Shown: in pieces, positions 17,798 to 50,524 of the stretch
Layout: the number at the start of each line of letters is the position of its first letter
How positions within the stretch are numbered: position 1 is the first letter of the stretch
From: Candidatus Micrarchaeota archaeon
Lineage (GTDB): Archaea; Iainarchaeota; Iainarchaeia; JAADDC01
Assembly: GCA_027046625.1 (NCBI GenBank)
Contig: JALTXX010000003.1
Location: 5,147-69,146 of the forward strand
Length of the DNA: 64,000 nt
Direction of reading: 5' to 3'
Notes under the pieces: model-generated
What the model was told of the DNA's origin: nothing
What the model saw: only the letters and a program-made list of their open reading frames with translations
Databases searched by the model: none
Translations under genes and position numbers: made by a program

Positions 17798-18031
17798 GGG
17801 CAGCGGGCCGTAGGCCGCCTTCTGTATTGAGACGGGATTAGACTTAGCGGGCATTCGCCCTTGCACCCAACCCGGACCGTTTCAACCACACCACACATCA
17901 TGGGTAGGGGTACCTCATCCCTCCGTGTGGTGGGTGTCGTTTCTGTTCCCGGGAGTCCCTCACGGGACTTGTTTTTAGCGGGTGGGCGGACCTTCCTCAG
18001 GAGACCCCCGAGACCCGTCTGCCCGCTGCCC
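17798..18031 (-). ncRNA. rnpB: structured ncRNA, probably a miniaturised (type T-like) RNase P RNA
   Basis: GC-rich (approx. 62%) island in an approx. 45% GC context. Perfect 11-bp terminal helix (GGGCAGCGGGC / GCCCGCUGCCC). Minus-strand reading contains GAGGAAGGUCCGCCC (close to CR-I GAGGAAAGUCCGGGC) and ACAGAAAC (CR-IV-like), plus a candidate P2 pairing GACGGG / CCCGUC. No protein coding potential. SRP RNA was considered but no helix-8 AGCA/GNRA signature was found. Confidence 0.45.
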
Positions 18032-18077: not shown

Positions 18078-18542
18078 TCATCTCCATATACATAGGGTGA
18101 GATTTGTTTTATTACAGTTTCTCGGATCGTTGTTGGTAATACACAGGGAGAAATCCTTCTTGAATAGTATGTCTGCATCGATGGGACAAGAAGTGGAACA
18201 TCCTATGTTATTTGCTATAATACTGCCTTCTATAGCGCAGTTAAGCGTTTCTGGCATGAAATCTTTCTTATTTGCACTAAAGAAGGATTTTATGCATCCT
18301 GGAATCCTAAAATCCCCAATTTTACACGCCCACACTCCGTCGTCTACAGCGAGCTTAAAGATGGTGTGATAAGCAGCCAGCTCAATCCTTCTATACAGAA
18401 GATCCTCCGAAACAGCAGATGTAACACCGTACGCTGCTGTAAGGGCAAAGTGGGAGGCTGCTATAAACAACAACAGTGCCACAAGTACATCCATGGTAAA
18501 TATCTGACCTTTCAACAGCTCACCTCCCTGGATACAATCCAA
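18078..18542 (-). CDS. pilin-like protein with class III signal peptide (pseudopilin, Cys-rich C-domain)
   Basis: N-terminus ...LKG/QIFTMDVLVALLLFIAA (Q+1, D+5, hydrophobic helix); last gene of the pilin operon. Confidence 0.45.
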   Translation of the reverse strand: MDCIQGGELLKGQIFTMDVLVALLLFIAASHFALTAAYGVTSAVSEDLLYRRIELAAYHTIFKLAVDDGVWACKIGDFRIPGCIKSFFSANKKDFMPETLNCAIEGSIIANNIGCSTSCPIDADILFKKDFSLCITNNDPRNCNKTNLTLCIWR

Positions 18543-18778
18543 ATAAAGATACCTTCTCCGCTTGTATACCTAATACCTCCCTCCTGTATATTGTCTATGA
18601 CGACTCCTCCCACATCTGAGGCAATGTCCATGAAGTAGCTGTTTGCATCTGTTAGGTAGGAACATATGGCCACCCTCGTAGCATCCCTCACCTCTTCCCA
18701 GTCTGGTGCCACTGCTCCAATAAAGGTTGTGAGCAGGAAGAGGGCTAACACCATATCTACGGAGAACACACCCCTCAT
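18512..18778 (-). CDS. pilin-like protein (class III signal peptide)
   Basis: MRG/VFSVDMVLALFLLTTF N-terminus, 88 aa. Confidence 0.45.
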   Translation of the reverse strand: MRGVFSVDMVLALFLLTTFIGAVAPDWEEVRDATRVAICSYLTDANSYFMDIASDVGGVVIDNIQEGGIRYTSGEGIFIWIVSREVSC

Positions 18779-19056
18779 TATCCCGCCCTCACATTGATAC
18801 CTCTTGCTCTTAGCCTATCAATGAGCTCATTCGGACCTCTCAATACTAATCCTCTATCATAATAGAACCTTTCTACCTCATAAATCTTCATGCTTTCCTG
18901 TTCGAGGGCTACCTCCTCCCTTATCAGTACAGGAGTAGCCTTTATGAGAGCCCCTCCACCCTCTAGCGTGTCTAGCATGATGTTTATGGATATAAGAGCT
19001 CCTAGCACTACTGCAAGCACAAGTATAAGGAACTCTCCCCATACCTGGCCTTTCAT
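18778..19056 (-). CDS. pilin-like protein (class III signal peptide)
   Basis: MKG/QVWGEFLILVLAVVLG: Q+1, E+5; 92 aa. Confidence 0.5.
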   Translation of the reverse strand: MKGQVWGEFLILVLAVVLGALISINIMLDTLEGGGALIKATPVLIREEVALEQESMKIYEVERFYYDRGLVLRGPNELIDRLRARGINVRAG

Positions 19057-19436
19057 GGTATCCCACTCACCTCTCCGCCACTTATTTTTATCCTTGTAAA
19101 GGTGTTTATGGTGGGTCCGGAGGTAAATACCCTGTCAAGCGTTACAATACACTCGCCCCCGCTACACAGATCCGTTGTAACCCTTGCCTCTAACCTCCTT
19201 AGGTCTATTGTGGTGTTTGGCGGTACCCACACACCCATCTTTACCATACCATCTGATACATCCGTAAATTCCCCAGCTGCCTTTACCCTGAGTAGACTCA
19301 CCCTTGCAGAGAGAACATTCCTTATATCGTCCTGCATGTTAATAACATCGTTTATATGGATGGTTGTGAGAGCTATGTACCCTCCCAGCAACACCATTAC
19401 TAGGATACCATACTCTATGGCTATAATACCTTTCAC
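19053..19436 (-). CDS. TadE/Flp-like pseudopilin
   Basis: MKG/IIAIEYGILVMVLLGG matches the bacterial Flp/TadE motif G/xxxxEY-G-hydrophobic; 127 aa. Confidence 0.6.
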   Translation of the reverse strand: MKGIIAIEYGILVMVLLGGYIALTTIHINDVINMQDDIRNVLSARVSLLRVKAAGEFTDVSDGMVKMGVWVPPNTTIDLRRLEARVTTDLCSGGECIVTLDRVFTSGPTINTFTRIKISGGEVSGIP

Positions 19437-19594
19437 TTTAGTCCCTCCAGTATGACGTCCTTCACGTCAAGCGCTTTTAGTATCTCTGTTTTCATGGCGT
19501 TGGCAAGTGTAAATAGTCCCCCGGCAGCTATAAGAGCCAGAAGGACTCCAATACCCACCATGATAAGATACTCTATATGAACCTGAGATCTCAT
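19433..19594 (-). CDS. Flp-type major pilin (53 aa; not on ORF track)
   Basis: Own translation: MRSQVHIEYLIMVGIGVLLALIAAGGLFTLANAMKTEILKALDVKDVILEGLK. Q+1, E+5, Y+6; ATGA overlaps on both sides. Confidence 0.6.
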   Translation of the reverse strand: MRSQVHIEYLIMVGIGVLLALIAAGGLFTLANAMKTEILKALDVKDVILEGLK

Positions 19595-19743
19595 GGCAAC
19601 CCCCTAAACACAGACACTTTCACTTTATTTTCTACTGTTGCCACAATGGCCGCCATCCCCGTTATGGCACCGGCTATGATGAGCACTATCACTAACATGC
19701 CCATGGAGGACAGCATGTACTCTGTTGCGGTCTGGCTCTTCAT
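19591..19743 (-). CDS. Flp-type major pilin (50 aa; not on ORF track)
   Basis: Own translation: MKSQTATEYMLSSMGMLVIVLIIAGAITGMAAIVATVENKVKVSVFRGLP. Q+1, E+5, Y+6; first gene of the 6-gene pilin operon. Confidence 0.6.
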   Translation of the reverse strand: MKSQTATEYMLSSMGMLVIVLIIAGAITGMAAIVATVENKVKVSVFRGLP

Positions 19744-24273: not shown

Positions 24274-25668
24274 GTGTTGGATCCCCTTCAATATCTTCGG
24301 ATAGTAGGCAACGAATACCATATCCAACGTCCCCGCCTATCAGAGGAAGAACGAACATTGCTGAACATCCTATCTATGCTTATTGAGGGAAGAACGTACC
24401 TTGAGGCGGTAAAAACATTACCCATCAGCCCAAGGGATGACTTCGAAGAACTTATGAGGGATTTCTTGCGGGGAGTAGACCCTAATAAGTTATACTCTTT
24501 GGACGAGCTTTTAAGGATGGGGGAGGAGCTGTACGAAACACTCAAGGTATTGGGTGTAGACAATGAGTATATCTCCCTTTACAGTGTGTTTGACGCTATA
24601 GGTCTAGGAGAGGTAACATTCTATCTCTATGATGAAAAGGTGGAGGAGGTGATGGTGAACGGATACAGAAATCCTGTATTTGTGTACAGGGCTGCCATGG
24701 GAAGCCTGAGAACCAATGTGGTTCCAGGAGGTAGCTTGGATAGATGGGTTAAAAGATTGAGCGGAAGAAGCAGAGAGAAGATCATAGATACCTCCCTGGA
24801 TGATATGAGGATCAGTATAGTAAGGGAGCCTCTATCAGATGAGGGACCAGCCATAACTATAAGAAAGCATAGAAAGGTACTTCTAGATCTTGTAGAGCTT
24901 ATGAGAAGAAACACCATAACTCCAGAGTTAGTATCCTATCTGTGGCTCCTTCTTGAAGGGTTGGAGGTGTCCCCCTTCAATATGATAGTGGCCGGCAACA
25001 CAGGTGGCGGTAAAACCACTACGCTAAACGCACTGTTATATCTTGTTCCTCTTGATGAGCGGATCGTTGTGATAGAGGACACCAGAGAAATTGTGGTACC
25101 CCACCCCAACAGGGTTTACCTTACAACAGAAGGAACAGACAATAGCTTAATGGACCTCCTTATAGCCTCTCTTCGTATGAGACCAGACAGAATTGTGGTG
25201 GGTGAGGTGAGGGGTAAGGAGGCAGTCACCCTATTGGCTGCTATGAACGTGGGCCATAGGGCCATGGGAACCATACATGCAAACTCCGCAGCTGATACAC
25301 TAAACAGGCTTGAGAATCCCCCTATGAATGTCCCTGAGAGTATGTTAGGCGCTCTTAACCTCGTGGTGGTTCAGCATCGTATAAGAACTCCAAGGGGAAC
25401 CATAAGAAGAGTTACAGAGGTGGCAGAGCTGTACAACATAGGAGACAGAATAAATATGGGTGTAACCTTTTCATGGAACCCGGACACTGATAAAATAGAG
25501 AGGACAACCATACCCTCTCACCTAATAGACAAGATGGCAGAATATACACACATTCCAAAGAAGCGGCTGTTGGAGGAACTAGAAAGAAGAGAATCCTTCC
25601 TTGATGGGGTTGTTAAAAGAAATGGCAAGCCTGAAGATATACTAAGGTATCAGGGTGACATTGTATGA
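24274..25668 (+). CDS. second FlaI/CpaF-family type IV filament ATPase
   Basis: Walker A VAGNTGGGKTTTLN, Asp/His boxes, GEVRGKEA motif; 464 aa. Confidence 0.75.
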   Translation: MLDPLQYLRIVGNEYHIQRPRLSEEERTLLNILSMLIEGRTYLEAVKTLPISPRDDFEELMRDFLRGVDPNKLYSLDELLRMGEELYETLKVLGVDNEYISLYSVFDAIGLGEVTFYLYDEKVEEVMVNGYRNPVFVYRAAMGSLRTNVVPGGSLDRWVKRLSGRSREKIIDTSLDDMRISIVREPLSDEGPAITIRKHRKVLLDLVELMRRNTITPELVSYLWLLLEGLEVSPFNMIVAGNTGGGKTTTLNALLYLVPLDERIVVIEDTREIVVPHPNRVYLTTEGTDNSLMDLLIASLRMRPDRIVVGEVRGKEAVTLLAAMNVGHRAMGTIHANSAADTLNRLENPPMNVPESMLGALNLVVVQHRIRTPRGTIRRVTEVAELYNIGDRINMGVTFSWNPDTDKIERTTIPSHLIDKMAEYTHIPKKRLLEELERRESFLDGVVKRNGKPEDILRYQGDIV

Positions 25669-30758: not shown

Positions 30759-31014
30759 CTCTGTACATCTCTAATCTACCATACACGCATCTATATCCTG
30801 ATATGCATTGTCCATAGAAGGATACACCCTTTATTTCGCCACTTTCATCCAAAATCCTATATAAACACCCTTTTTCCAAAGCTTTTACAGGCAAAAAGGT
30901 GGCGCAAACCTTGTATAATCTTCCAAAATCTTTCAAATCCTCTATACTGCTTTCTACAGGTTCTATTAGTGAGAGAAGAAGTAAGGCAATGAGGAACACA
31001 CCCCACCTCCACAC
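30724..31014 (-). CDS. small secreted Cys-containing protein (hypothetical)
   Basis: Signal-peptide-like N-terminus MWRWGVFLIALLLLSLIEPVES; 96 aa. Confidence 0.3.
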   Translation of the reverse strand: MWRWGVFLIALLLLSLIEPVESSIEDLKDFGRLYKVCATFLPVKALEKGCLYRILDESGEIKGVSFYGQCISGYRCVYGRLEMYRGEKELVILSDA

Positions 31015-31841
31015 ACAATAAAAAGGGCCAAACTACATATAACACCCAGTGTGATGAAGGGTATGAAAGGGATGGAAAGATGAGCCCTTATACTATTTAT
31101 TCCCATCTCCTTCAACCTCTTCACATCTTCCTCTGTCAGCCCATCCGCTCCTATGTTATGGACAGGAAGGATTTCACCTTTCTGAATCTTTAATAGTGTA
31201 TTAATGTTTAGATCATACCTTTTACCCTCCTTATCTATTACTTCTGCTGGTATAACCCCCTCTTTAACTGTTTCCTCGTACCTAAGAAGCTTTTTTATCC
31301 TAAGGAGATAAATAACTGCAGAAAGCAGAACTATGGCAAGAAAGAAGTTCAGATTAAAGCTAACTACTCCAAGGGGAAGAAACAGCAAGTAATACCTCTC
31401 TGGCAGAAACACCCATGCCAGTATTCCAAGAAAAGGATGTATGGAGAAGGGAATGGCGAGAAGCACAGATTTCTTCATGTGACTTAACAGCTCATGACTT
31501 TTCTTTCTCAACACAACAAACATACCGTACAGCCCAGACAGTAATATGGCAAAAGTAAGAGAAAGAAGGGATATCGGCACTCCAAACAATGTATAGGGTA
31601 TTCCAGCTCCGATAATAAGAAGTATCCATACATCTCCCAGCGCAAATGCGCCCATAGCATAGAGTAGTACCGCTATAGCGGCTGTAACAATCAGACTATA
31701 TAGGAATGTTTCGTGGGAAACACCAAGAAGCACAGCCACCCCATAGGAAATGTATACCAGCTCATCCGGAATTTCCCGTTTCTTTATATCCTCCAAAGAG
31801 AAATAAAAGAGAAGAGGTAACAATATCAAAACTTCCCACAT
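30966..31841 (-). CDS. class III signal peptidase / prepilin peptidase (A24 family; PibD/TadV/EppA-like)
   Basis: N-terminal TM then acidic loop (SLEDIKKREIPDEL), second catalytic Asp in FALGDVW, multi-TM core, plus a C-terminal soluble extension. Confidence 0.6.
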   Translation of the reverse strand: MWEVLILLPLLFYFSLEDIKKREIPDELVYISYGVAVLLGVSHETFLYSLIVTAAIAVLLYAMGAFALGDVWILLIIGAGIPYTLFGVPISLLSLTFAILLSGLYGMFVVLRKKSHELLSHMKKSVLLAIPFSIHPFLGILAWVFLPERYYLLFLPLGVVSFNLNFFLAIVLLSAVIYLLRIKKLLRYEETVKEGVIPAEVIDKEGKRYDLNINTLLKIQKGEILPVHNIGADGLTEEDVKRLKEMGINSIRAHLSIPFIPFITLGVICSLALFIVCGGGVCSSLPYFFSH

Positions 31842-31862: not shown

Positions 31863-32051
31863 CTATCCGCCAAGTTGGTTTAGCTGCTGATTTATCTCTT
31901 TTTGTAGTGTAGATGTAGTTTGTTGAATAGATTGACCTGCTGTGGTGGCACCCTGCTGCCCTGCCTGGAGCAGACTGTTGGCCAATATTAGTACAACTAT
32001 AATTACTCCACCCAGCAGCAACATGTACTCAAATGTACCCTGGCTTCTCAT
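31863..32051 (-). CDS. Flp-type pilin (start moved to internal Met; track ORF ends at 32102 with a GTG start)
   Basis: MRS/QGTFEYMLLLGGVIIVVLIL, nearly identical head to the 36825 pilin; Q-rich C-terminal tail. Confidence 0.5.
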   Translation of the reverse strand: MRSQGTFEYMLLLGGVIIVVLILANSLLQAGQQGATTAGQSIQQTTSTLQKEINQQLNQLGG

Positions 32052-32181: not shown

Positions 32182-33682
<1,501 letters not shown>

Positions 33683-33934: not shown

Positions 33935-33955
33935 CGCAACTCTTAAAAACCCCAT
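33935..33955 (-). promoter_or_regulatory. putative rRNA promoter (TATA-like box TTTTTAAGA, minus strand), shared divergent region
   Basis: AT-rich box about 250 nt upstream of the 16S 5' end, in an otherwise GC-rich leader; position inferred only. Confidence 0.2.
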
Positions 33956-33969
33956 TTCCTTCTTCTTCC

Positions 33970-35967
33970 GTGAAACGTGTATTAAAGGAGTTTAAGGAAC
34001 TTCTGAAGGAGAAGCCAGAGGGATTTCTAGATGCAGAAAAGTTTCTTAAAGTAGCGCTTGGCACCATTACCAGGGCTGTGCATAGAAATATAGGCAGAGG
34101 ATTAGGGGAGGAGGGGAAAATAAAGTTTAATTTGGAAGCTTATGATAAGGAAGGGTATAATCACATATCAGAGGCTAGGATACACGAGAAAATATCAGAT
34201 AGGGTGGCCAGCCATCCAGAGATAAGGAAGATTTTGTCTATTATAAAGAAACCAAGGCTGGTGTTTGCTCCGGAGAGAGAAATTGATATCTACGATATTT
34301 ACAGTGATAGACTTCCGAACATAAAAAGATATGTAGTGTTGGACAATGAAATAATAGAGCTGTTCAAAATGTATGGCACGTACAACCCTCATTTGTTAGA
34401 AAAGGATGAACATGAACTACTATCGTACTTGCTAGCAGAAAATGAAGGAGAGGAAGAGATTATCCGCCATCTTATGTATAGATTACCAAGAGAGGAGCTG
34501 TTGGAGCGATGGGAAGATATAAGGAGGAAATTCTCTGATGAAGAGCTAAGGTCTCTCCTTGTAAGGTTTAGAGGGGACGATATACGTAACCTTCTGGATA
34601 GGAAAGAGGAGGAGCTGAGAGGTGCATTACCTTTCCTAAGGAAAGTAGGTATTTTCAACGAAAAGGTGTTGGAATTGGCCACAAGACTATCTAAACATCC
34701 GGCCTCCCATCTCCTTATACCCCACTTCAACAAGATTATGCTATTCTCTGTAAGGGAACCAGAAGAGATGGAACGATTCTTGAAGGTTGTACGGGATAAC
34801 CCAGATATTTTGACCCATGTAAGGGGTCTGGATGATATAAAAAGAGTAGCTCAGGCGGAAAGGAAGGGCCTTGATCCCAAGAAGATAGAGCTCCTGCTAG
34901 AACATAATATGGATCTATCAGATGCGCACCTTTTAGATATAGAGTGGTTTAGGAATGGGTTGAAGAGAGGAATGAGCGTGGGTACGTTGAAGAATGTATA
35001 TCTCCACCCTGTGAAAAACAAAAAAGCCCTTCTAGAGCTGATTAGAAAGGTAGGTAGAGATATTTTAGAGTATGATGTGAGCGACAGGGATGTAAGCAAG
35101 CTTCTCCAGGCAAAGATAGTAGACCTAGATGCTGCTGTAAGCTTATCAAAGCTGAATATACATCTTCACCCGGAGTTCCAACGATTATATAGGGAAGGTG
35201 TGCCCCCAGAGAGACTGAAACAGCTAGAGGAGATGGGGGTAAATCCAGATATATTAAGGGGGATACCTCCTCACAAGGTGGAGGCCATCCTATCCTATGT
35301 GGGCAATAAAATATCTGCTAAGGATGTGGAGAGCCTTCTCACCTTTAAAACGGATGTTATAAAGAGGGGTGGAAGAAAGGAAAGAACCTCCCTAAAGGAT
35401 CCGGAGAAATATGCACAGAATCTGTTGAAACATTTAAGGGTTACAAAGGATGGATACAGGTTTAGGGGAGGCAGTGTGCCTAAGGTGTTGAGGAAGAAGG
35501 TATATAAGAGTGTAGAAGATCTCTTAAAGGATATAAAGGCTCATCTATACCTAAAATATAGTAAAGAGGATGCAGAGGAGGTTATTTCCATCTTACAGAA
35601 TAAGGTGCCGTCTCTGCTACCAAATAAGGTGGTAAAGGAAGAGCAATATGTAAGGGAAAATTATGGGGATGTGGTTCCTGTCCTAAGAAGTTTATACAGA
35701 TCATTACCTCATATAAAGATAAGTAGAGAAGGGGAATACATAATCTTCAGACACACAAAAAGCTTCCACGATAGCACTGCCCTCTTCAGTCCTAAGTTTC
35801 TAAGGATACTAAGAGAGGTTGGAGGGAGTATTAGTATTCAAAAGCCCTATGAAAAGGGAGAAAACAGGTTAAAAGTACACAGAGACGTTTTATCCTATCT
35901 TCTATCCCATGATAGTATTTCCAACGTAAGGGAGGTAAAGGAGCTAAGGAAGAGGCTCAAACTATAA
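33970..35967 (+). CDS. large alpha-helical basic protein of unknown function
   Basis: 665 aa, GTG start, K/E/L/R-rich helical repeats, no Cys clusters or NTP-binding motifs; divergent from 16S. Confidence 0.45.
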   Translation: MKRVLKEFKELLKEKPEGFLDAEKFLKVALGTITRAVHRNIGRGLGEEGKIKFNLEAYDKEGYNHISEARIHEKISDRVASHPEIRKILSIIKKPRLVFAPEREIDIYDIYSDRLPNIKRYVVLDNEIIELFKMYGTYNPHLLEKDEHELLSYLLAENEGEEEIIRHLMYRLPREELLERWEDIRRKFSDEELRSLLVRFRGDDIRNLLDRKEEELRGALPFLRKVGIFNEKVLELATRLSKHPASHLLIPHFNKIMLFSVREPEEMERFLKVVRDNPDILTHVRGLDDIKRVAQAERKGLDPKKIELLLEHNMDLSDAHLLDIEWFRNGLKRGMSVGTLKNVYLHPVKNKKALLELIRKVGRDILEYDVSDRDVSKLLQAKIVDLDAAVSLSKLNIHLHPEFQRLYREGVPPERLKQLEEMGVNPDILRGIPPHKVEAILSYVGNKISAKDVESLLTFKTDVIKRGGRKERTSLKDPEKYAQNLLKHLRVTKDGYRFRGGSVPKVLRKKVYKSVEDLLKDIKAHLYLKYSKEDAEEVISILQNKVPSLLPNKVVKEEQYVRENYGDVVPVLRSLYRSLPHIKISREGEYIIFRHTKSFHDSTALFSPKFLRILREVGGSISIQKPYEKGENRLKVHRDVLSYLLSHDSISNVREVKELRKRLKL

Positions 35968-36824: not shown

Positions 36825-36965
36825 ATGAGAGGACAGGGTACCTTCGAGTACATGCTCCTTCTACTTGCGGTAATCGTAGTGGTTGTTATCCTCTTTTCTA
36901 ATATGTTCAGCGGAGCAAGGGAGGTAAAGGGTGGCATTGAGGAAGTTGCCTCCCAGCTTAGGTAA
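36825..36965 (+). CDS. Flp-type major pilin (46 aa; not on ORF track)
   Basis: Own translation: MRGQGTFEYMLLLLAVIVVVVILFSNMFSGAREVKGGIEEVASQLR. Q+1, E+5, Y+6. Confidence 0.6.
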   Translation: MRGQGTFEYMLLLLAVIVVVVILFSNMFSGAREVKGGIEEVASQLR

Positions 36966-36996
36966 GCTTTAAATGGGAAAAGTATAAGAGTATAGT

Positions 36997-39513
36997 GTGA
37001 GGCTTCAAACATCCTTTGAGTATCTCCTCACGGCGGGAGCAGCCCTACTAATTACGCTGGCTGTAGGAACCCCAGTCATCCAATCCCTCTCAAATATCCA
37101 GACCACAACAGCCCTTCCTCCCACTCCTCTCGTTGAAGGAAAAAGATATATCACCCTTGCCTATGTAGATCCACCAAAGGGAACTACAAACACATTGTTT
37201 ACCTTCTACTGTGCTGCAAAGAACGCAAGAACCATCTATTTGTATGTGGACGGAAGCTTTATTCATAGCTGTAGCGATATATCCTACTGTCAAGCAAAGA
37301 AAAGAGGATTCGCTGGCTCCGCCTCTGGAAGGGAACACCTTTTCAAGTGTAGAGTTTATACAAAGAATGGAATAGTAGAGGAGTACACCATCCCCTTCTA
37401 TGTTTACAACAGGGATGTAGAGCCTCCCAGCGTAAGTGTATCGGTTAACCCCAATTCGGGAGATCCATCCACCGTGTTTAACATTCTTTGTACAGCTACC
37501 GATAACATAGGCGTTAAAACCATCAAGATATTTGTTGACGGACTGTTAAAGCAAACATGTAACGATTCTACCACATGCCAGTACTCTGGTGCCTTTTCGG
37601 TGGGAACTCATACTGCACAATGTGAAGCCGCAGATCTATCAGATAACACAAACTCCGCCTCCGCTACCTTTACAGTAACAGAGGCTGGTTCTACCCCTGG
37701 CGGAGGGACCTCCCCAGGCGGCGGTGGAGGAGGCGGAGGAACCACCCCTAGTAATAATAACCCACCGGGAGGAACTCCCCCAGGTGGAGGCACCTCAGGT
37801 TCAAAACCTAAAATAAGTTGTAGCTTGCAGAATGATTTTAGTGGTAAAGTAACTGTAATATGTACTGCTGTAGTTCCGGATAAAAGTAAGTTTATTGCAG
37901 ATTTTGATGTAAAGGAAGCATCCCTTCTCAATGAGGGCTATTATATCCATACGCAGTTTCCTGGAAACAACTTGGAGCTTTGTAGAGGTATACAGGGATT
38001 CCCCTCATATTGCAAGAAGTATCCAGCACCCTATACCTTTACACCATCAGATAACTTTGTAAAGCAGGCCTTTGACACAGAGAAAGGAGTTAGGGTAGAG
38101 GTAGCATACGGAAGTTATTTGGCAACAGTAATGCTAACATATGATAGGGATGAACTTGTGTGTAGAGGATTGACCTGGCAAAATGGCAAAGGATATGTCC
38201 GCCTGACTTTAATAGCGCAGAATTCATCTGCAATAGTGTCTAATGAAAGTGTAACCAAAGAAACTATTATGCTACCCAACACGTTAGGCAATTGTCCCAT
38301 AAGAACCGACGCGCAGCTTCTATATTATGTGGATGTAGACGGAGATTTCTCATCCGATGGCATATATACAGCATGTAAGGGATCCACGGATGATGGTCTG
38401 AAACAGATAGCTGTGAGCACCTTCCCTTTGTATAGCGTTTATGATGGAGAGTACAGGGTTTGTAACACTAAAAGATCCATGACTAGAGGATGGTACAAGG
38501 ATGGATTCTATGAGAGCCTTTCTGCTAAAGGGAAACAAAACGTAGATAAATCTATCCGTATAGTACCCATACCATACTTTATAGATAGTGGTAAGGTAGT
38601 GGAGGGTGCTTGTGGAAGGTTTATACCTAAGAGCATGCTGGTAACCCCTGATGGAAGACCAACCACAGGCAAGGTATTTGTAAGGTGCCAATATGAGTCC
38701 TTAACCGGTGGTAGAGTGGAAAGAACATTCACATTCGATGGAACGTTGATATGTAAAGCCCTAGGAGGTAGCAACTGTACCTCATCGCCGAGAGGACCCA
38801 CTCCTCCATCCGCACCACCTCCGGGCTCAAGCCCTACAACCGGAGGGTCTTTTAGTGTAGCCCTTGACGTATCCCCACAAACAGGCTACATGGGAGACAG
38901 ATTCAGAGTAACATGTACCACCATAAAGGATGCAACCATTACAAAGATAGAAGCTAGGGGCGCATGGGGCTACTACAGAGAAGACCTCACAAGAGGGATG
39001 GTGTGCGACATAAACCCAAACTATCCATTCCTTCAGACATGTATCGTAAACTACTACCCCCCAGACATAGGAACCTACACTTTAACCTGTGTAGCTGACT
39101 ACCAAGGCCAAACAGCCTCCGACACCAAAACCATAATCGTTCAAGAGAGGCCACCCAATGTTTCTCTGTCTGTATATCCAGAAACCGTAGAGTACCCGGG
39201 TAGTATCCGTGCAGAGTGTATAGTTTCTGCCACACCACGTACACATGGGTATAGAGTGGATGACGTAAGGGTGTACTTTTCGATAGATAATGGTGTTGCA
39301 CGCTATGCATATTGTACTAAGGAATCTCCGGACATGAAAAGATGCAGATATTATACTACTACATTTACTACATTACTGAGTGTGGGTAGCCATACGGTTT
39401 CATGCATAGCCATTGGACCTGAAGGTGGTAGAGCAACCGACTATGCCACAGTAGTGGTGGAACCTCCTCCAGAGTATAGACGACCCTCCTATAGGAGAGT
39501 ACCCTCTATATGA
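36997..39513 (+). CDS. giant pilin-headed surface protein / putative pilus tip adhesin
   Basis: N-terminus MRL/QTSFEYLLTAGAALLITLAV has the same pilin head. Then 838 aa with many paired Cys, beta-rich repeats, and a G/P/T/S/N low-complexity linker (PGGGTSPGGGGGGGGTTPSNNNPPGGTPPGGGTSGS). Confidence 0.55.
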   Translation: MRLQTSFEYLLTAGAALLITLAVGTPVIQSLSNIQTTTALPPTPLVEGKRYITLAYVDPPKGTTNTLFTFYCAAKNARTIYLYVDGSFIHSCSDISYCQAKKRGFAGSASGREHLFKCRVYTKNGIVEEYTIPFYVYNRDVEPPSVSVSVNPNSGDPSTVFNILCTATDNIGVKTIKIFVDGLLKQTCNDSTTCQYSGAFSVGTHTAQCEAADLSDNTNSASATFTVTEAGSTPGGGTSPGGGGGGGGTTPSNNNPPGGTPPGGGTSGSKPKISCSLQNDFSGKVTVICTAVVPDKSKFIADFDVKEASLLNEGYYIHTQFPGNNLELCRGIQGFPSYCKKYPAPYTFTPSDNFVKQAFDTEKGVRVEVAYGSYLATVMLTYDRDELVCRGLTWQNGKGYVRLTLIAQNSSAIVSNESVTKETIMLPNTLGNCPIRTDAQLLYYVDVDGDFSSDGIYTACKGSTDDGLKQIAVSTFPLYSVYDGEYRVCNTKRSMTRGWYKDGFYESLSAKGKQNVDKSIRIVPIPYFIDSGKVVEGACGRFIPKSMLVTPDGRPTTGKVFVRCQYESLTGGRVERTFTFDGTLICKALGGSNCTSSPRGPTPPSAPPPGSSPTTGGSFSVALDVSPQTGYMGDRFRVTCTTIKDATITKIEARGAWGYYREDLTRGMVCDINPNYPFLQTCIVNYYPPDIGTYTLTCVADYQGQTASDTKTIIVQERPPNVSLSVYPETVEYPGSIRAECIVSATPRTHGYRVDDVRVYFSIDNGVARYAYCTKESPDMKRCRYYTTTFTTLLSVGSHTVSCIAIGPEGGRATDYATVVVEPPPEYRRPSYRRVPSI

Positions 39514-39565: not shown

Positions 39566-40669
39566 TCACCTTGCGGAAACGATCTTTATTACATCTAGAT
39601 GGTTTAGGGGTTGATCCTTGGGAATCCTAATGAGTTTTCTGGCATCTATCGCGGCTACAAAGTGCTTCGCTAGGTCTGAATGTATCTTCTCTGCAAGGTC
39701 AAGAGGTGTAGACCCCTTCTCTAGTATAATAGCGTCTGGTAGTACTCTTCCGGCACTATCTGTCCAATTATGCTCGTTCTGAACAGGAAACACCACAATA
39801 TGGTTTGATAAAACAGCCTCGTTTATAGCCCTTTGAACACCGGTGGAGCTCCATCTGGATAGCACCTCCTCTGCTATAGATAGTGCTTTCTCTTGTTGGG
39901 GTGAAAGAGGCTTCAAAACCCGGAAGGAGTCATCCCCAGGAATATAATCTATGTAGCCTGACTTTGCAGCCCTTCTAAGTATGAGTTCTGAGAGGGAGGA
40001 GGTAGGGATTACATCACCATAACGCTTTTGTAGTTCCTTTACCCACTCCTCAGAGGAGGGGATATCCACCTTATTGGCCACAATAACCCTTTTCTTCCCC
40101 TTCAATATCCTATCTACAATCTCCTCTATCCCCATATCGTAGCTTATCTCTAATGATCCAAAGGCGCTCAGCTGTTGGATGAGCCTTTCCTCCCTTTCCT
40201 CGGGAGGATAGTTTCTCACCTTCTCCAAAGCCTTCTCCACAATACCTTTTATCCATAATCTTAGTTCCCTCTCTAGAAAGGCAACTTCCTCAACGGGATT
40301 TCCCTCTCCCTCGTTTCCTTCCATATCTGTCCTTCCAGAAGCATCCACAACGTGAATATACACTTTTTCCTGTCTTATCTGGTCTAGAAACTTGTTGCCC
40401 ATCCCCCTCCCCTCATGGGCACCCGGAACCAGCCCCGCAATATCTGTAATCTTTACAGGTACAAACCGGTTACCCATAATACAAAATCCCTTAGAAGGTT
40501 CGCAAACTCTACCCTTTTCCTGATGGGGACACGGAATCCTTATCCACGTAATCCCTATGTTTGGATCTATGGTGGTAAAGGGATAGGGAGCAGTTTTTAC
40601 ATTGAGCTCCGTGGCGGCATTGAAAAAGGTACTCTTGCCTGATGAGGGCTTCCCTATGAGTCCTATCAT
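39566..40669 (-). CDS. Obg/YchF-like GTPase (Ygr210/DRG-type)
   Basis: G1 [13 protein letters not shown]2 YPFTT, G3 DIAGLV, G4 NKVD; 367 aa. Confidence 0.7.
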
Positions 40670-41505
40670 GTTCTCACAATCCTACAATAATCCACATACT
40701 TAGGGGTTGAGTAGTTTTTCCGCGCAAAGTACTCTACATACGGGGCGTTTTCATCAAGGATGGTGTACCCGTCAATACTTATTCTAACCATTGCCTGATA
40801 TGAGGTAACGGTATACTTTGCTAAGGTTTCCTCTTTTGTTCCAGTGTGGCACACACAGTAATAGTTTTTTGTTACCTCTTTCCAGTCCCTTGAAACGGAG
40901 AATGTAATGCTTTTATTTGTGCTTCTTGTAATTGTGGGCGTCTCTATGGTGCAGTTATAGGAAAAGATCCATGTATCTCCAGATCCGGCAATACCGTATG
41001 AAGAGCAGGAGAGCTTTACCCCCAATACATCCAACGCATTTCTAAGATCGTTGTAGAGCGTATCCAGAGTATTCTTTACATTTACGGAACTTACGTTAGG
41101 GGTAGAAGGAAATGGAGAAAGATAGTAGCCTACAACATTAGGGCATGGATCTATATCACTTCCTCCTGAGAGGTTCCATATGGTACATCCAATATTATTG
41201 TCAACGGATTTGCATGTTGCAGTGGTTCCACCGGGTGGAAACTGATAGAAGGAAGGAACATTCCATTTTTCGCTGCTGTCATTGCTATAATCGCCAGGGT
41301 CGAAGTTGTTGGCAAGCACCTTGTAATACTCATAGGCATAGGCTTCTGCGGCAGCCTTTACAAGTTGGAACTCTGCTACCGTAATGTGGAGGGCATGGTA
41401 ATACCCAACCCACATAGGAGCCACAAAGCCCAGAGAGGAATAGTACAGACCCACCAAATTCATGAGGGTTAATACCCCTTCAAGGGGAGAGGCAATGGTT
41501 AACAT
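40666..41505 (-). CDS. Cys-rich exported protein, probable pilus-associated subunit
   Basis: Hydrophobic N-terminus, about 10 Cys and N-glycosylation sequons; last gene of a 3-gene pilin-like operon. Confidence 0.35.
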   Translation of the reverse strand: MLTIASPLEGVLTLMNLVGLYYSSLGFVAPMWVGYYHALHITVAEFQLVKAAAEAYAYEYYKVLANNFDPGDYSNDSSEKWNVPSFYQFPPGGTTATCKSVDNNIGCTIWNLSGGSDIDPCPNVVGYYLSPFPSTPNVSSVNVKNTLDTLYNDLRNALDVLGVKLSCSSYGIAGSGDTWIFSYNCTIETPTITRSTNKSITFSVSRDWKEVTKNYYCVCHTGTKEETLAKYTVTSYQAMVRISIDGYTILDENAPYVEYFARKNYSTPKYVDYCRIVRT

Positions 41506-41735
41506 CCTATCACCTCTGGTCTGTCAAGTACAGATAGATCTCCAAAGGTTTCTATGTTTACGGTGCATATATCGGGATTTCCTCCCTTCCCCATCTCTAT
41601 GGATGCTATATCACCTACCATGGTAGGCAAATCTTCGTGGGGCGGGATGTTTATGGATCCTATAACTTGGGAAATGCCATACATAGTTAGTATGAGGAGC
41701 ACAAGGTATATGGTGGAGAAGAACAAGCCCCTCAC
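41499..41735 (-). CDS. pilin-like protein (class III signal peptide)
   Basis: MRG/LFFSTIYLVLLILTMYG; 78 aa. Confidence 0.4.
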   Translation of the reverse strand: MRGLFFSTIYLVLLILTMYGISQVIGSINIPPHEDLPTMVGDIASIEMGKGGNPDICTVNIETFGDLSVLDRPEVIGC

Positions 41736-42115
41736 CCGATCACCTCCAGAGAGGAGGGGGTTACCCTAATGGCAGAGCTACCCCTTGATAGTGTAGTAGT
41801 GGTACACCTTACGTTGAACCCTGGTAATTGGATGAAGTATTCGTTACTACCCCACCTCATAGACACACTGCTACCATTGCATGAAAGCTCAATACCATTT
41901 ACAGGTACGGTAACTACTGTATATTGAGTTCCAAGGATGGTGGATCTGTAGAGAGCCATCTTTATCTGAGAAAGGGACATCCTTACATAGGTTAGCACAA
42001 CTGTTTCTTTGGAAACATTTTTCGTACTGTTTACCATGCCTTGGGCAAGAGGATAGAACATTCCTAATAGTACCAGTGCAATGAGTAATACCTCAACACT
42101 TACAAACCCACGCAT
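41732..42115 (-). CDS. pilin-like protein (class III signal peptide)
   Basis: MRG/FVSVEVLLIALVLLGMF: E+5; 127 aa. Confidence 0.5.
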   Translation of the reverse strand: MRGFVSVEVLLIALVLLGMFYPLAQGMVNSTKNVSKETVVLTYVRMSLSQIKMALYRSTILGTQYTVVTVPVNGIELSCNGSSVSMRWGSNEYFIQLPGFNVRCTTTTLSRGSSAIRVTPSSLEVIG

Positions 42116-46450: not shown

Positions 46451-47416
46451 GTGGCGTCCCAACATTTTCACATGATATATTTCCTATCCTTCATACTTAC
46501 CTTTCTTCTTATCAAGTACTGGATAGAGCTTGCAAAACAAAGAGGACTTGTAGGAAGGGACATGAATAAGTTTGAGGAGGTATATGTAGCAGAGGGTGGG
46601 GGAGTTCCCTTTCTTATGGGGACAATACCTGTAATTATCCTATTATCTCTCTTTTACCCGGAAAAATCCCTGGAAATTCTTGCTATTTCATCCTCCATTC
46701 TTTTGCTTGGGATGATAGGTTTTGTGGATGACGTTCTGGGATGGAAGAAGGGTCTTCCCCAATGGGTAAAGCCAGTGCTAACTATATTGGCAGCCTTACC
46801 TATCTCCGTGGTTGTGTATATGAGGGGTTTGTCCGGCCTTTCATTGGATCCTTTTATCTATGCATGGATAGCGGTACCAATAGGTATTGTGGGTGCATCC
46901 AATGGATTTAACATGCTGGCAGGCTTCAATGGGCTGGAAGGAGGGCTGGCACTAATTATATTATCAACCCTTGGTGTGAAGGCGTTTATGGAAGGAAATC
47001 TTTGGCTTTTTGATATAATTTTAGTGTTTATTGCAGCATTGCTAGCATTCCTATACTATAACTGGTATCCCGCTCGGATATTCCCAGGAGATAGCTTTAC
47101 ATACGCAATAGGAGGACTTATTGCTTCCATTACCATCTTTGGTGGAATGGAAGTAATAGGTGTTGCACTCTATACATTGTTTATCTTAAAACTCATATTA
47201 TTCCTAAGAGCAAGGTTTTTGGACAAGAAGAAAAAGGTAGAAGCCTTTGGAATACCACAGAGGGATGGTACCTTGAAAAAACCTTACGACAAATGGTATG
47301 ATACCACTCACATTGCTATGGACATATTAGGAAAACATTCAACGGAGCGTAATGTGGTGCTTTTGATACTAACGGCTCAGTTAATAATATCTACGCTGGT
47401 ATTGTTGGTAATGTGA
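46451..47416 (+). CDS. aglH: polyprenyl-phosphate N-acetylhexosamine-1-phosphate transferase (MraY/WecA/AglH family)
   Basis: About 10 TM segments, DDxxG (FVDDVLG), and the NGFNMLAGFNGLEGG motif. Confidence 0.7.
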   Translation: MASQHFHMIYFLSFILTFLLIKYWIELAKQRGLVGRDMNKFEEVYVAEGGGVPFLMGTIPVIILLSLFYPEKSLEILAISSSILLLGMIGFVDDVLGWKKGLPQWVKPVLTILAALPISVVVYMRGLSGLSLDPFIYAWIAVPIGIVGASNGFNMLAGFNGLEGGLALIILSTLGVKAFMEGNLWLFDIILVFIAALLAFLYYNWYPARIFPGDSFTYAIGGLIASITIFGGMEVIGVALYTLFILKLILFLRARFLDKKKKVEAFGIPQRDGTLKKPYDKWYDTTHIAMDILGKHSTERNVVLLILTAQLIISTLVLLVM

Positions 47417-48777
47417 GGCGCCTAGCAAGGATTTCTGCCATATTGGTAGTTACCTTCCTCCTTTCCTACGCAGCTCTTTATATCTTTCGAATAGCAGCGG
47501 GTAGAATCCTTCAACCAGAGGATTTTGGTTACTTTATGTTCCTCTGGGGTACATCTGGAGTATTAGCCTCCTTGTCTATTTTGGGGATGGAAACAGGGGC
47601 TGCGAGGGAAATAGCAAGAAGAATAGCAGAGGGACATACGTATAAGGACATTGTAGGAGCTGCTACATTAGCTTCTATCCTATTTTCGGTGTTTCTATCC
47701 CTGCTAACAGGTATTCAAGAGCTACTGATTATAGTACCCTTCTACGCTCTTTTCCTCCTCTATACAGGCATACTAAGAGGATCGGGGAGATTCCGTGAAA
47801 GGGCGTTAGCAGACGTTGTAAGGGCTGCGGTTCTCCTCATTTCTTCCCTGTATGTTATCTACAATCCATCCCTTTATGTGGCTGTACTACTTTTCTCCCT
47901 CTCCTTTATCTTCCCCCTTCTTTTGGAGATTCTTGTAGAGCCCCCCGGAATCCCCTCTCTGCGAACTGTTATAGAAATTGTTAGATCTTCGATTTCCTAT
48001 CTTCTCATGAGTGTTTCCTTCAGAATTATGCAGTGGACAGATCTGATATTGGTAAACGTGTTGCTTGGTAGTCTAAAGACGGCCATCTACGGAGCGGCAT
48101 CCACGGTAGTAGGAATATTTGCCGTTATATACAATGTGGCCGGTTATGTTTCCCTACAGAGGCTTACCATATACTATGAGAAGGGGATGCTAAAGGATAT
48201 GTTCGAGTTCTTTAGGAGGGTAAATAAATGGGTACTTCTCGTATCCCTGCCGCTGATTCTTTTGCTACTCATATATCCTTCCACCGTTATAGAGATGTTG
48301 TTTGGGAGGTATGGAGAAGGAGGCACAGCACTCATTATACTGTCTCTTTCTCTCCTTGTTCAACAGCTTGGAGGCATTCTGGGAACGCTTTATACTGCTG
48401 TTGGAAGGCCAGATATGTGGAACAGGGCAGCCATCATAGCGGCAATCCTAAATGTGGTTCTAAATATGGTGTTTATACCTATCTGGGGTTTGGTGGGGGC
48501 AGCCATTGCTACAGGTATAAGTATCGCTCTTAGAACGTTGCTGGCGGTGCTGGGTATATACAACATGTGGAAGGAACTTCCTCTTGATAAGGGAAGTCTT
48601 TTTGTGATAATATCCTTTATCCTTACAGTTGTGGCAGATAGAACATTTCTATCCCCCTTTCCACCTCTTCAGGAGGCTATAATATCGCTCCTCTTGTACG
48701 GAGTGTTGCTGGTTGTTTTAAGGGCTTTTGATAGGGAAGATATTAGAATAGCGAGGGAGTTGATCCATGGAAGGTGA
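47413..48777 (+). CDS. oligosaccharide/polysaccharide flippase (Wzx/MOP family)
   Basis: 454 aa, 12-14 TM segments with MOP-type topology. Confidence 0.65.
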   Translation: MRRLARISAILVVTFLLSYAALYIFRIAAGRILQPEDFGYFMFLWGTSGVLASLSILGMETGAAREIARRIAEGHTYKDIVGAATLASILFSVFLSLLTGIQELLIIVPFYALFLLYTGILRGSGRFRERALADVVRAAVLLISSLYVIYNPSLYVAVLLFSLSFIFPLLLEILVEPPGIPSLRTVIEIVRSSISYLLMSVSFRIMQWTDLILVNVLLGSLKTAIYGAASTVVGIFAVIYNVAGYVSLQRLTIYYEKGMLKDMFEFFRRVNKWVLLVSLPLILLLLIYPSTVIEMLFGRYGEGGTALIILSLSLLVQQLGGILGTLYTAVGRPDMWNRAAIIAAILNVVLNMVFIPIWGLVGAAIATGISIALRTLLAVLGIYNMWKELPLDKGSLFVIISFILTVVADRTFLSPFPPLQEAIISLLLYGVLLVVLRAFDREDIRIARELIHGR

Positions 48778-49501
48778 ATGTAAACTATGTGGTATAACGT
48801 TTAGAACTAGGAAGGAGGATGTAATAAGGATCCCAAAGGACTACATCCCTCTCTATACTATAAGCCTTGATCACATGTGGTGGATTCTTAGATGGGATGT
48901 ATATAAGGATGCCATTAGTAGGGGGGTATGTACGGCAGACGGCACATGGATAAAACGGCTGATCCAGCTGAAATGTGGTAAGAGGGTTGATAGACTAGCT
49001 GGAAGCAGAATAATATATGATTTTCTCTCCCTTGCAAAGGAAAACGAACTAAGAGTAGCCTTTGTGGGCGGTACTCAAGAGGTCTTGAGAGAGGCCTCAG
49101 AGCGTATAAAGAGGGAGTATGGGCTGGAAGTATACACAATGGATCCGGGATTGATATCATATCCGTTTCACGAAGTAACCATAGAAAATGTTTTGTCGTT
49201 TGTGGAAGATAAAGAGCCCCACTTTGTGTTCTTTGCTTTGGGAGGTGCTCCTAAACAAGAGTTATTTATGGATAGTTTAAATGATGGGTTAAAAGACAGA
49301 GGGGTACTCCTTTCTATGGGTATTGGAGGAACATTGGATATGATTGCAGGAAGAATCAAACTTGCACCAAAATGGGTATCAGATATAGGGTTAGAGTGGT
49401 TATGGAGGGGTATGGAAGGATTTCACAGACTTACAAAGATAAGAAGGGGATATACGGCGCTATTTAGAGTATTACTAAGGCTCTTAAGGGGTAAGTGTTG
49501 A
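48767..49501 (+). CDS. WecG/TagA/CpsF-family glycosyltransferase
   Basis: 244 aa: AFVGG...FVFFALGGAPKQE...MGIGGTLD pattern of this family. Confidence 0.6.
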   Translation: MEGECKLCGITFRTRKEDVIRIPKDYIPLYTISLDHMWWILRWDVYKDAISRGVCTADGTWIKRLIQLKCGKRVDRLAGSRIIYDFLSLAKENELRVAFVGGTQEVLREASERIKREYGLEVYTMDPGLISYPFHEVTIENVLSFVEDKEPHFVFFALGGAPKQELFMDSLNDGLKDRGVLLSMGIGGTLDMIAGRIKLAPKWVSDIGLEWLWRGMEGFHRLTKIRRGYTALFRVLLRLLRGKC

Positions 49502-50524
49502 GTATATCTCTTCTAACATATCAACATGTTTTTCCCATGTTAGGGGAGTTACATCGCATAAGCAAGGGGAGGATTGAAGGATTAGGTTCGCCGCTTCCTC
49601 TATCGAATCGAACAGCTTTACACACCTACAATATCTTTTTATAGTTCTCGGCCCGGGACTGTCCTTTACGATGGGTACAAGGCCTCTCGCAAGCGCTTCT
49701 ACTACTACGATTCCAGACGCCTCATATGGGGATGGCAGAAGCAGGAAATCGTGCTCATCCAACACCTTCCACTTTTCTTCTCCATAAACTGGTCCTCTAA
49801 AGGTTACCCGTTTTTCAACACCTAATCTTGTTGCTAACCCTCTCAAATGATCCCTATATCCAGAAATTGCCTCGGGGCCCACAATACTGAGTGTGTATTC
49901 CTTTGGAAGTAACGCAAGTATTCTAATGGTATCGTCTACGCCCTTAAGAGGATCCAGCCTACCAAGATATAGGATTTTTGTGCCATACTTCTCCCTTTGT
50001 TTTATATTCTCAGCGCTTACGTTCGCAGTAGGCAATACAATTCCTTTGAAAAAGAAACGCTCCTCATCGTTTGTCATTATTATATAATCCATGAGCCTCC
50101 AATACCACCCCACTGATAGGTCAAATATTTTAACAAACACCCTTTCTATCCCCTTTCTAGGATGAAAGGGAGAATGAGTCGTCATTATCACCTTTCTTCC
50201 TCCTAGTTTTAGTAAAAGAGAAAGAATGGTGTGAGGGTGACGAAATCCATGCACATGGATAATATCGAAATGTTTTGCGACTTGTAGAAAACCTGGCCAA
50301 AATCTTGCAAACCTACCCATTCTTAATATTGCGGGAAATCTATACACAGGAATGCCATCTATGGTTTCTCTTTGGGGAAGAGGTTTTCCATGCGCATTCT
50401 CTGCTACTGTTAAAACTGCCACTTCATGCCCCCTTCTTTTTAGCTCTTTCACAACGTGATATACATATAGCTCCACCCCACCTGTTTGGGGCAGGAAAAA
50501 TGGGGTTACATGGACAATGCGCAT
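49484..50524 (-). CDS. GT4-family glycosyltransferase
   Basis: GT-B fold; EASGIVVVEALARGLVPIV (E-x7-E motif). Confidence 0.75.
   Translation of the reverse strand: MRIVHVTPFFLPQTGGVELYVYHVVKELKRRGHEVAVLTVAENAHGKPLPQRETIDGIPVYRFPAILRMGRFARFWPGFLQVAKHFDIIHVHGFRHPHTILSLLLKLGGRKVIMTTHSPFHPRKGIERVFVKIFDLSVGWYWRLMDYIIMTNDEERFFFKGIVLPTANVSAENIKQREKYGTKILYLGRLDPLKGVDDTIRILALLPKEYTLSIVGPEAISGYRDHLRGLATRLGVEKRVTFRGPVYGEEKWKVLDEHDFLLLPSPYEASGIVVVEALARGLVPIVKDSPGPRTIKRYCRCVKLFDSIEEAANLILQSSPCLCDVTPLTWEKHVDMLEEIYSTLTP

Follow-up and report, generated by a model that had tools for sequence, protein, structure and literature searches.

A pilin-headed protein with immunoglobulin-like domains beside a tiny pilin gene in an archaeal type IV filament region

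The subject of this report is a pair of genes on the forward strand of a 64,000-nucleotide stretch of DNA from contig JALTXX010000003.1, referred to below as the window. The first gene encodes a tiny pilin of 46 amino acids, and the second, directly after it, encodes a protein of 838 amino acids that joins a pilin-type head to immunoglobulin (Ig)-like domains and a cysteine-rich core. The window also encodes the machinery of a type IV filament, and we consider the larger protein a candidate modular minor pilin of that filament. The parts list of the filament system and the domain anatomy of the protein were read from the window and are collected in Table 1.

The gene pair and its promoters

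The smaller gene, which is also called as a gene in the public assembly, encodes a helix-only pilin. Its head (MRGQGTFEYMLLL; MRG/QGTFEYMLLL) has Gly at -1, Gln at +1, Glu at +5 and Tyr at +6, and the product would be left with 43 amino acids if cleaved after Gly3, the predicted site. The protein matches Pfam family PF04021 (Class_IIIsignal) above the cut-off of 23.7 bits (score, 32.7 bits; E = 6.5e-8). An earlier note on this DNA had labeled it “Flp-type,” a label that captured a genuine helix-only pilin with the G/XXXXEY motif and a Tad-class machine but was mistaken about the family and the domain of life. The Pfam Flp family gave no match to the 46-amino-acid pilin at E ≤ 1, and a bacterial Flp locus is ruled out by the archaeal 16S rRNA and RNase P RNA genes in the window.

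The 838-amino-acid protein cannot have a longer N-terminus, because an in-frame TAA lies four codons 5' of its GTG. The spacer between the two genes is 31 nucleotides (the earlier note had counted 30), and each gene is preceded by its own TATA-like hexamer. Among the 49 longest open reading frames (ORFs) of the window, TATA-like hexamers cluster at -30 to -26 of the start codons; 10 of these genes have one starting between -34 and -26, compared with 3.4% of random positions. A TATA-like box at about -30 from the start codon is the signature of leaderless archaeal mRNAs, and the peak implies that the window genes are mostly transcribed as such. By the same token, the TTTAAA before the tiny pilin gene would be a promoter for a leaderless mRNA. 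Since each gene has its own box at -29 or -30, the two are probably under separate promoters, which would make very different expression levels possible. Read-through from the first gene into the second may still occur, as the spacer has no T-run. Many window genes use GTG or TTG starts.

Table 1. Features of the window. Positions are counted from the first letter of the window; a slash within a sequence marks the predicted cleavage site. aa, amino acids; AF2, AlphaFold2; HMM, hidden Markov model; P0031, L012 and L014, a related protein and two related loci.
Feature	Position	Strand	Evidence or remark
TATA-like hexamer TTTAAA	36795-36800	+	30 nucleotides before ATG of the 46-aa pilin gene; read from the sequence
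Tiny helix-only pilin gene, 46 aa	36825-36965	+	ATG start; reads MRGQGTFEYMLLLLAVIVVVVILFSNMFSGAREVKGGIEEVASQLR; Pfam PF04021 match
TATA-like hexamer TTTAAA	36968-36973	+	within the 31-nucleotide spacer; 29 nucleotides before GTG of the 838-aa gene
838-aa protein gene	36997-39513	+	GTG start; N-terminus MRLQTSFEYLLTAGAALLITLAVGTPVIQSLS
Pilin-type head, residues 1-31, MRL/QTSFEYLLTAGAALLITLAVGTPVIQSLS	36997-37089	+	motif, head HMM, hydropathy, AF2 helix
Ig-like domain D1, residues 46-138, 4 Cys	37132-37410	+	AF2 beta-sandwich; collinear with P0031
Ig-like domain D2, residues 139-230, Big_7-type, 4 Cys	37411-37686	+	phmmer, AF2, Foldseek
Linker 1, Gly/Pro/Thr/Asn-rich, residues 231-270	37687-37806	+	sequence; no N-x-S/T sequon
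Orphan Cys-rich core, residues 271-598, ~330 aa, 12 Cys, beta-rich	37807-38790	+	sequence, failed fold assignment
Linker 2, Pro/Ser/Thr-rich, residues 599-617	38791-38847	+	sequence
Ig-like domains D3 (618-716) and D4 (717-822), 4 Cys each	38848-39462	+	similarity to D2, Cys pattern
Pro/Arg-rich C-terminal tail, residues 823-838, and stop	39463-39513	+	hydropathy scan
CpaF/TadA-like secretion ATPase	15024-16610	-	T2SSE; part of assembly motor 12963-16610
Two platform genes, directly downstream of the ATPase	13891-15039, 12963-13901	-	T2SSF in both
Operon of six pilin-like genes (50, 53, 127, 92, 88, 145 aa)	18078-19743	-	translations; syntenic in L012, L014
A24 prepilin peptidase, 291 aa, presumed processing enzyme	30966-31841	-	Pfam Peptidase_A24
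Tiny pilin paralogue, 62 aa (Met at 32051), MRS/QGTFEYMLLL	31863-32051	-	PF04021, 24.5 bits vs. cut-off 23.7
Second pilin-like set (127, 78, 279 aa)	40666-42115	-	translations; converges on the 838-aa gene
Archaeal 16S rRNA	32182-33682	-	Rfam
Archaeal RNase P RNA	17799-18030	-	RNA scan

The 838-amino-acid protein and its relatives

The large protein begins MRLQTSFEYLL, with Arg2, Gln4, Glu8 and Tyr9 followed by a hydrophobic helix, so that it shows the +1 Gln, the +5 Glu and the hydrophobic helix by which DUF361 pilins are recognized. In a hydropathy scan this N-terminal segment was the only hydrophobic one; no second segment that could serve as a C-terminal membrane anchor was found. AlphaFold2 (AF2) placed a helix at residues 2 to 31 with low confidence. 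The motif M-[KR]-x-Q-x3-E-[YF] followed by a hydrophobic stretch occurs at 6 ORF starts in the window and at none in 20 shuffles. When a hidden Markov model (HMM) was built from six small pilin heads only, the 838-amino-acid protein was the top-scoring nontraining ORF of 480 (14.5 bits, E = 6e-4). A relative from another metagenome, P0021 (described below), scored 41.8 bits. These results bear out the claim of the earlier note that the two neighbors share the same head, and the likeness appears real but modest.

Could the head resemble a pilin by chance, at the front of an ordinary Sec-exported protein? The score against the small-pilin HMM is only 14.5 bits and Pfam is silent on the head, as such a protein would lead one to expect. 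We find this very improbable, because the motif is absent from the shuffles and kept in both known head-bearing relatives, the head begins at residue 1 as it does in ten other pilin-like genes of the window, and two organisms have a pilin gene immediately before the gene in question.

The ectodomain consists of two Ig-like domains, a linker, the core, a second linker and two more Ig-like domains. D1 matches D2 in sequence at E = 1e-9, and D3 and D4 resemble D2 weakly but consistently (E = 3e-4 to 6e-4). With an alignment of three sequences, AF2 modeled only residues 50 to 230 confidently, as beta-sandwiches (predicted local distance difference test [pLDDT] scores of about 60 to 90), and in a Foldseek comparison this model resembled tandem FN3/BIg adhesin modules (CbhA Fn3, SiiE and Bap). 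Structure prediction, which the earlier note had proposed as a check, was thus informative for this part, which is Ig-like, whereas the remainder was not confidently modeled; beta strands were predicted for D3 and D4 with low confidence. The Pfam family Big_7 (PF17957) matched the 838-amino-acid protein below threshold (14.7 bits, cut-off 24.1) and two relatives above it (P0031, 40.1 bits; P0021, 44.8 bits). No DUF2341 or PilY1 beta-propeller domain was matched by Pfam in the 838-amino-acid protein, the bacterial N-methylation motif (IPR012902) was absent by inspection, and a PDB sequence search with the whole protein yielded nothing useful.

The description of the protein as Cys-rich with low-complexity linkers held up. 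It has 28 cysteines, four in each Ig-like domain with the same spacing and twelve in the core, as expected of a disulfide-stabilized extracellular protein of a thermophile; conservation of disulfide-type cysteines in archaeal pilus components was noted by Makarova et al. (PMC4858521). A 107-amino-acid antisense ORF with a poly-Pro run (37608 to 37931, reverse strand) is the mirror image of the Gly-rich linker and was rejected as a gene. For the core, we obtained no Pfam match at E ≤ 1, nothing meaningful in PDB by sequence and no counterpart among 155 retrieved proteins.

A word-indexed search of 5.8 billion proteins returned the 838-amino-acid protein itself and two marginal Ig matches, with nothing full-length. 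A phmmer search of 1.84 billion cluster representatives gave 550 matches at E ≤ 0.001. Nearly all of the 150 that were listed matched best on D2 and the adjoining end of D1 (residues ~105 to 240), and among those 150 only P0031 and P0021 carry the head. Both of these proteins combine a pilin-type head with Ig domains, the opposite of the headless homologs that the earlier note had named as a sign against a pilin. Elsewhere, the species-representative genomes of GTDB contained one Micrarchaeota contig that matched the protein in an Ig domain only, a protein alignment against JGI metagenomes found nothing, and viral contigs gave no match.

P0031 (622 amino acids; N-terminus MRFQASVEFLVLGLGALLLTLSVG) is collinear with residues 1 to 219 of the 838-amino-acid protein at 31% identity (E = 5e-22). 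Its scaffold comes from the same metagenome as the window and is indistinguishable from it in G+C content and tetranucleotide profile (r = 0.975, compared with 0.976 between the two halves of the window), which suggests that P0031 is probably a paralogue in the same genome. Its gene stands alone, with no adjoining tiny pilin.

P0021 (389 amino acids; N-terminus MRNQTGMEYMLIL) comes from a different metagenome, and its locus, L009, is syntenic with the pair studied here: a 44-amino-acid pilin (MENQTSMEYLIL), a 31-nucleotide gap, the GTG-started P0021 gene and, on the opposite strand, an Obg-like GTPase that is 57% identical to that of the window. The equivalent TTTAAA precedes the P0021 gene, also at -29. 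P0021 and the 838-amino-acid protein share the head and Ig domains only; the core has no counterpart in P0021. The pairing of a pilin with a pilin-headed Ig protein has thus been kept while the ectodomain turned over fast, a pattern that fits an exposed, ligand-facing protein. With the GTPase as an anchor, JGI metagenomes yielded two further loci (L010 and L011), the closer of which, L010, is not syntenic.

This pattern bears on whether the protein is instead a structural accessory of the pilus, for example a subunit that primes assembly, crosses the envelope or anchors the base. Ig domains are generic and imply no ligand, an uncleaved head could hold a last-added subunit in the membrane, and local remodeling of the S-layer for filament passage has been proposed for Ig-rich proteins in archaeal pilus loci (10.64898/2026.04.22.720090). 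An accessory role seems improbable to us all the same: lengths of 838 and 389 amino acids and an unmatched core, next to a GTPase at 57% identity, amount to a fast turnover that better fits a protein exposed to ligands. Moreover, the minor pilins linked to the machinery are kept in relatives, and no relative of the 838-amino-acid protein was found in those loci, which stop short of the syntenic position.

We propose, at a probability of about 0.55, that an archaeal type IV pilus of the Epd/Tad-like kind (“system 1”) includes the 838-amino-acid protein as a modular minor pilin, in other words a pilin-headed adhesin. Several observations weigh against this proposal, first among them the site at which the head would be processed. 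Prepilin peptidases normally need Gly, Ala or Ser at -1, and cleavage is usually needed for assembly in the systems studied. The -1 residue is Leu in the 838-amino-acid protein, Phe in P0031 and Asn in P0021, in contrast to the Gly, Ser or Ala of the strict-motif small pilins of the window and the motif-fitting, machinery-linked pilins of two relatives. Given these residues, the large pilin-headed proteins may escape cleavage. The leaders in the window are also short, with three residues (Met-Arg/Lys-x, ending in Leu in the 838-amino-acid protein) compared with 5 to 13 in Methanococcus, where they end in Gly (PMC3875500); that of the 46-amino-acid pilin ends in Gly but likewise has only three residues. 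PF04021 did not match the whole 838-amino-acid protein at E ≤ 0.1 or its 40-amino-acid head alone at E ≤ 1. With the profile silent and with neither the leader length nor the Gly at -1 of that family, the protein is not a demonstrable member of PF04021.

Other points on the same side concern the rest of the protein and its setting. No globular pilin module lies between the helix (residues 2 to 31) and the first Ig domain (from about residue 50). The core has no recognizable fold, with AF2 pLDDT scores of about 25 to 35 in the full-length run and 35.6 when it was modeled alone. The gene lies ~20 kb from the motor genes, and the separate TATA-like boxes weaken the case from co-transcription with the tiny pilin, which is not required. 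The heavy glycosylation of the linkers that the earlier note had thought plausible also lost ground: the protein has 5 N-x-S/T sequons, none in the linkers, where a composition-based estimate gives ~6, and a count so near the estimate leaves heavy N-glycosylation unsupported.

Part of this evidence would suit a surface protein that carries a pilin head but is never polymerized. Its head would be an uncleaved anchor or a class III signal used for export only, and the Ig stalk and core would stand on the cell surface. Class III signals on nonfilament proteins are documented, for example, on the sugar-binding proteins of the Sulfolobus bindosome (PMC3047682). In addition to the -1 residues of all three large proteins and the PF04021 result, Ala, Gly and Thr make up more of the hydrophobic stretch in the 838-amino-acid protein and P0031 than in the small pilins, as if this stretch formed a subtype of its own, and P0031 has no tiny pilin next to it. 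Against such a protein stand the conservation of Gln4, Glu8 and Tyr/Phe9, since a charged Glu would not be expected to persist in a plain membrane anchor, and the close, syntenic linkage to a tiny pilin gene that two organisms share. In addition, the 44-amino-acid tiny pilin of L009 itself has Asn at -1, so the peptidase of this lineage may be permissive. We judge a nonpolymerized surface protein possible, if on the unlikely side, and favor the modular minor pilin.

Filament machinery and other features of the window

Judged from domain matches and translations, all parts of a Tad/Epd-like type IV filament system are encoded in the window, namely a CpaF-like ATPase, two platform genes, an A24 peptidase, four tiny pilins (46 to 62 amino acids) and about seven mid-size pilin-like genes. 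The best PDB matches of the ATPase were CpaF (5.8e-83), GspE of Archaeoglobus (8e-81) and FlaI (4e-62). Its nearest named relatives belong to metagenome-assembled genomes of Diapherotrites, Micrarchaeota and Nanoarchaeota, where NCBI names it “CpaF family” or “TadA,” and the motor locus is syntenic in two relatives. The operon of six pilin-like genes comprises two tiny pilins (50 and 53 amino acids) and four mid-size candidates for minor pilins. The peptidase matched Peptidase_A24 with 33.0 bits (cut-off, 26.5) and Arc_PepC_II weakly, while a PDB sequence search with it gave nothing useful. The gene for the 62-amino-acid pilin ends 21 nucleotides upstream of the peptidase gene. A profile built from five tiny pilins found no proteins beyond those it was built from, and NCBIfam had nothing for any pilin-like gene.

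In the second pilin-like set, heads were recognized by eye (MRGFVSVEVLL and MRGLFFSTIYLVLL), and only MRGFVSVEVLL passes the loose motif; Pfam matched none of these genes. They form a trio with overlapping stop and start codons (39566 to 42115 on the reverse strand, including the GTPase), the last of which overlaps the start of an Obg/YGR210-like GTPase by ATGA. This conserved GTPase therefore appears to be translationally coupled to the pilin-like genes; the same GTPase flanks L009.

A second T2SSE ATPase (24274 to 25668, forward strand; the public call starts later and gives 430 amino acids) has no adjoining platform gene. Downstream of it lie a small protein with an RNA_binding domain and a 250-amino-acid ORF (217 amino acids in the public call) with a faint Ig-like match. 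On another contig, L008, probably of the same genome, a 283-amino-acid protein (10108 to 10959, forward strand) has a different archaeal pilin-type head, MRGVSPIVATILIILLVVAIG, and a Pfam Lectin_C domain (34.2 bits; cut-off, 22.6). With this combination, it would represent a second type of modular pilin-like protein. To our knowledge, C-type lectin domains are uncommon in archaea.

Genes for glycan synthesis are clustered at 46451 to 50524, 7 kb downstream of the pilin pair; the cluster comprises Glycos_transf_4, a Polysacc_synt flippase, WecG and a GT1-type enzyme. A GT2 enzyme (11762 to 12991) adjoins the platform genes. These genes may supply glycans for the surface or for pilins.

The DNA of the window matches a metagenome-assembled genome (GCA_015521515.1) as well as ENA and Logan assemblies. 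The host is tentatively placed in a DPANN lineage on the names of the nearest ATPase relatives. Its rRNA has 62% G+C in a genome of 44% G+C, which suggests a thermophile. Rfam found no 23S or 5S rRNA gene in the window, so with the 16S gene alone there, the rRNA genes are unlinked. The 16S gene has the tiny pilin and peptidase genes as neighbors on one side and, on the other, an orphan gene for a 665-amino-acid protein. The RNase P RNA gene follows the six-gene pilin operon on the same strand, 48 nucleotides after its last gene. The gene of the 665-amino-acid protein (33970 to 35967, forward strand), which is rich in Lys and Glu, immediately precedes those of CorA and the pilin pair; the protein had no Pfam or NCBIfam match and is alone in its 90% cluster.

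A pyrimidine-rich stretch of 23 nucleotides, CCCATT(T/C)CCTTCTTCTTCCGTGA, occurs at 33951 to 33973 (forward strand) in the window and at 223 to 245 in L009. In the window it sits between the TATA-like box and the GTG of the 665-amino-acid gene and in L009 between those of P0021, although the two genes are unrelated. It occurs once in the window and in 0 of 100 shuffles, and could be either a promoter-proximal module common to both genes or a scar left by recombination.

Assembly model and comparison with known pili

From these parts we infer membrane insertion, processing, incorporation, a tip location and adhesion for the 838-amino-acid protein, in the following way. The head would insert into the membrane with the ectodomain outside. 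After possible removal of Met-Arg-Leu by the A24 peptidase, the protein would be extracted and assembled, together with the helix-only pilins of 43 to 59 amino acids, by the CpaF-like motor and its two platform proteins. An ectodomain of ~800 residues cannot pack in a shaft of bare helices, so the protein would be incorporated first and most likely remain at the far end of the pilus; alternatively, it could be sparsely distributed along the shaft by way of a flexible linker. Bacterial modular pilins are probably tip exposed (PMC8179133). D1, D2 and the Gly/Pro linker would act as a stalk, and the core and the C-terminal Ig domains would bind a surface, possibly that of a host cell if the organism is a DPANN symbiont. 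With leaderless promoters of their own, the two genes could be expressed so that small pilins far outnumber large ones.

A bolder version, which we consider doubtful, is that the three large proteins form a separate class of giant pilin-headed adhesins in thermophilic DPANN-like archaea. Their heads would have lost the small residue at -1, escaped normal cleavage and come to enter the filament as an uncleaved cap or anchor, and their rapidly evolving, orphan Cys-rich ectodomains would set the choice of host cell.

Archaeal pili of “system 1,” the Epd class, combine two platform genes with numerous pilins, of which the major one is helix-only, and occur in methanogens, Thermococcales and DPANN (10.64898/2026.04.22.720090; PMC6668835; PMC4858521). 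The machinery of the window matches this description: the CpaF/TadA-type ATPase, the split platform, the A24 peptidase and the helix-only pilin are all present. The Epd pili of Methanococcus maripaludis, whose DUF361 pilins are processed by EppA, have +1 Gln and +5 Glu, with a major pilin of about 62 amino acids when mature (PMC3875500). They share with the window these class III heads, tiny major pilins without a globular domain, scattered pilin loci, an ATPase with two platform genes, a dedicated A24 peptidase and larger class III proteins with adhesion-type domains (PMC3875500, PMC4858521, 10.64898/2026.04.22.720090). Apart from the leaders, the differences are that the DUF2341/PilY-like adhesins of that system were not found in the window, that the lineage is probably DPANN and no methanogen, and that the 838-amino-acid protein is ~3 times as long as the largest Methanococcus DUF361 protein in PMC3875500 (200 to 299 amino acids).

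Bacterial Tad pili are thought to derive from archaeal Epd-like systems (PMC6668835), and the likeness of the window to Tad/Flp pili extends to helix-only pilins of ~45 to 60 residues, the G/XXXXEY motif in the 46-amino-acid pilin, an ATPase closest to CpaF and a two-gene platform. Compared with the bacterial systems (TadV; TadE/F/G, CpaJ/K/L), the host is archaeal, Pfam Flp is unmatched, the leader is much shorter and domains of the TadE/TadG type were not seen. Nor did a secretin or other outer-membrane part come to light among the window genes scanned, which were part of the total.

The modular type IV pilins of bacteria (PilB and PilC of Streptococcus sanguinis; CofB and TcpB of type IVb pili) likewise carry bulky modules, attached by a linker to a pilin N-terminus and presumably exposed at the tip. 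They have an N-methylation motif and a full globular pilin module, whereas the 838-amino-acid protein has a DUF361-type head and the helix alone before D1. By its domain layout, it would work like a modular pilin while standing outside the InterPro-defined set (Raynaud et al. 2021). The earlier note had called pilin-headed proteins of this size rare, which the literature did not bear out, as modular pilins are widespread in bacteria; 838 amino acids does, however, lie near the top of a range whose largest listed member has 860 (PMC8179133). Tandem beta-sandwiches, conserved cysteines and a link to pilin genes are also seen in the large Ig-rich, adhesin-like proteins of archaeal pilus loci (arCOG07037 and arCOG05616, Thermoproteota) and bacterial BIg adhesins (SiiE and Bap). 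The arCOG07037- and arCOG05616-type proteins are set apart by their descriptions as signal-peptide or C-terminally anchored (PMC4858521, 10.64898/2026.04.22.720090).

Since pilins with adhesive modules and Ig-rich proteins of archaeal pilus loci are already established, the conceptual gain from this protein is limited, and its points of note are the noncanonical -1 residue and the orphan core. The former bears on how strict archaeal prepilin peptidases are. If our reading is correct, the protein would be among the largest pilin-headed proteins described, in a little-studied Epd-like pilus of an uncultured thermophile. Attachment to other cells is the presumed way of life of DPANN-type organisms. 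In analogous ultrasmall bacteria, type IV pili are required for attachment (PMC12206443). A fast-diverging adhesin borne on a pilus would thus be a concrete candidate for host recognition in such an archaeon.

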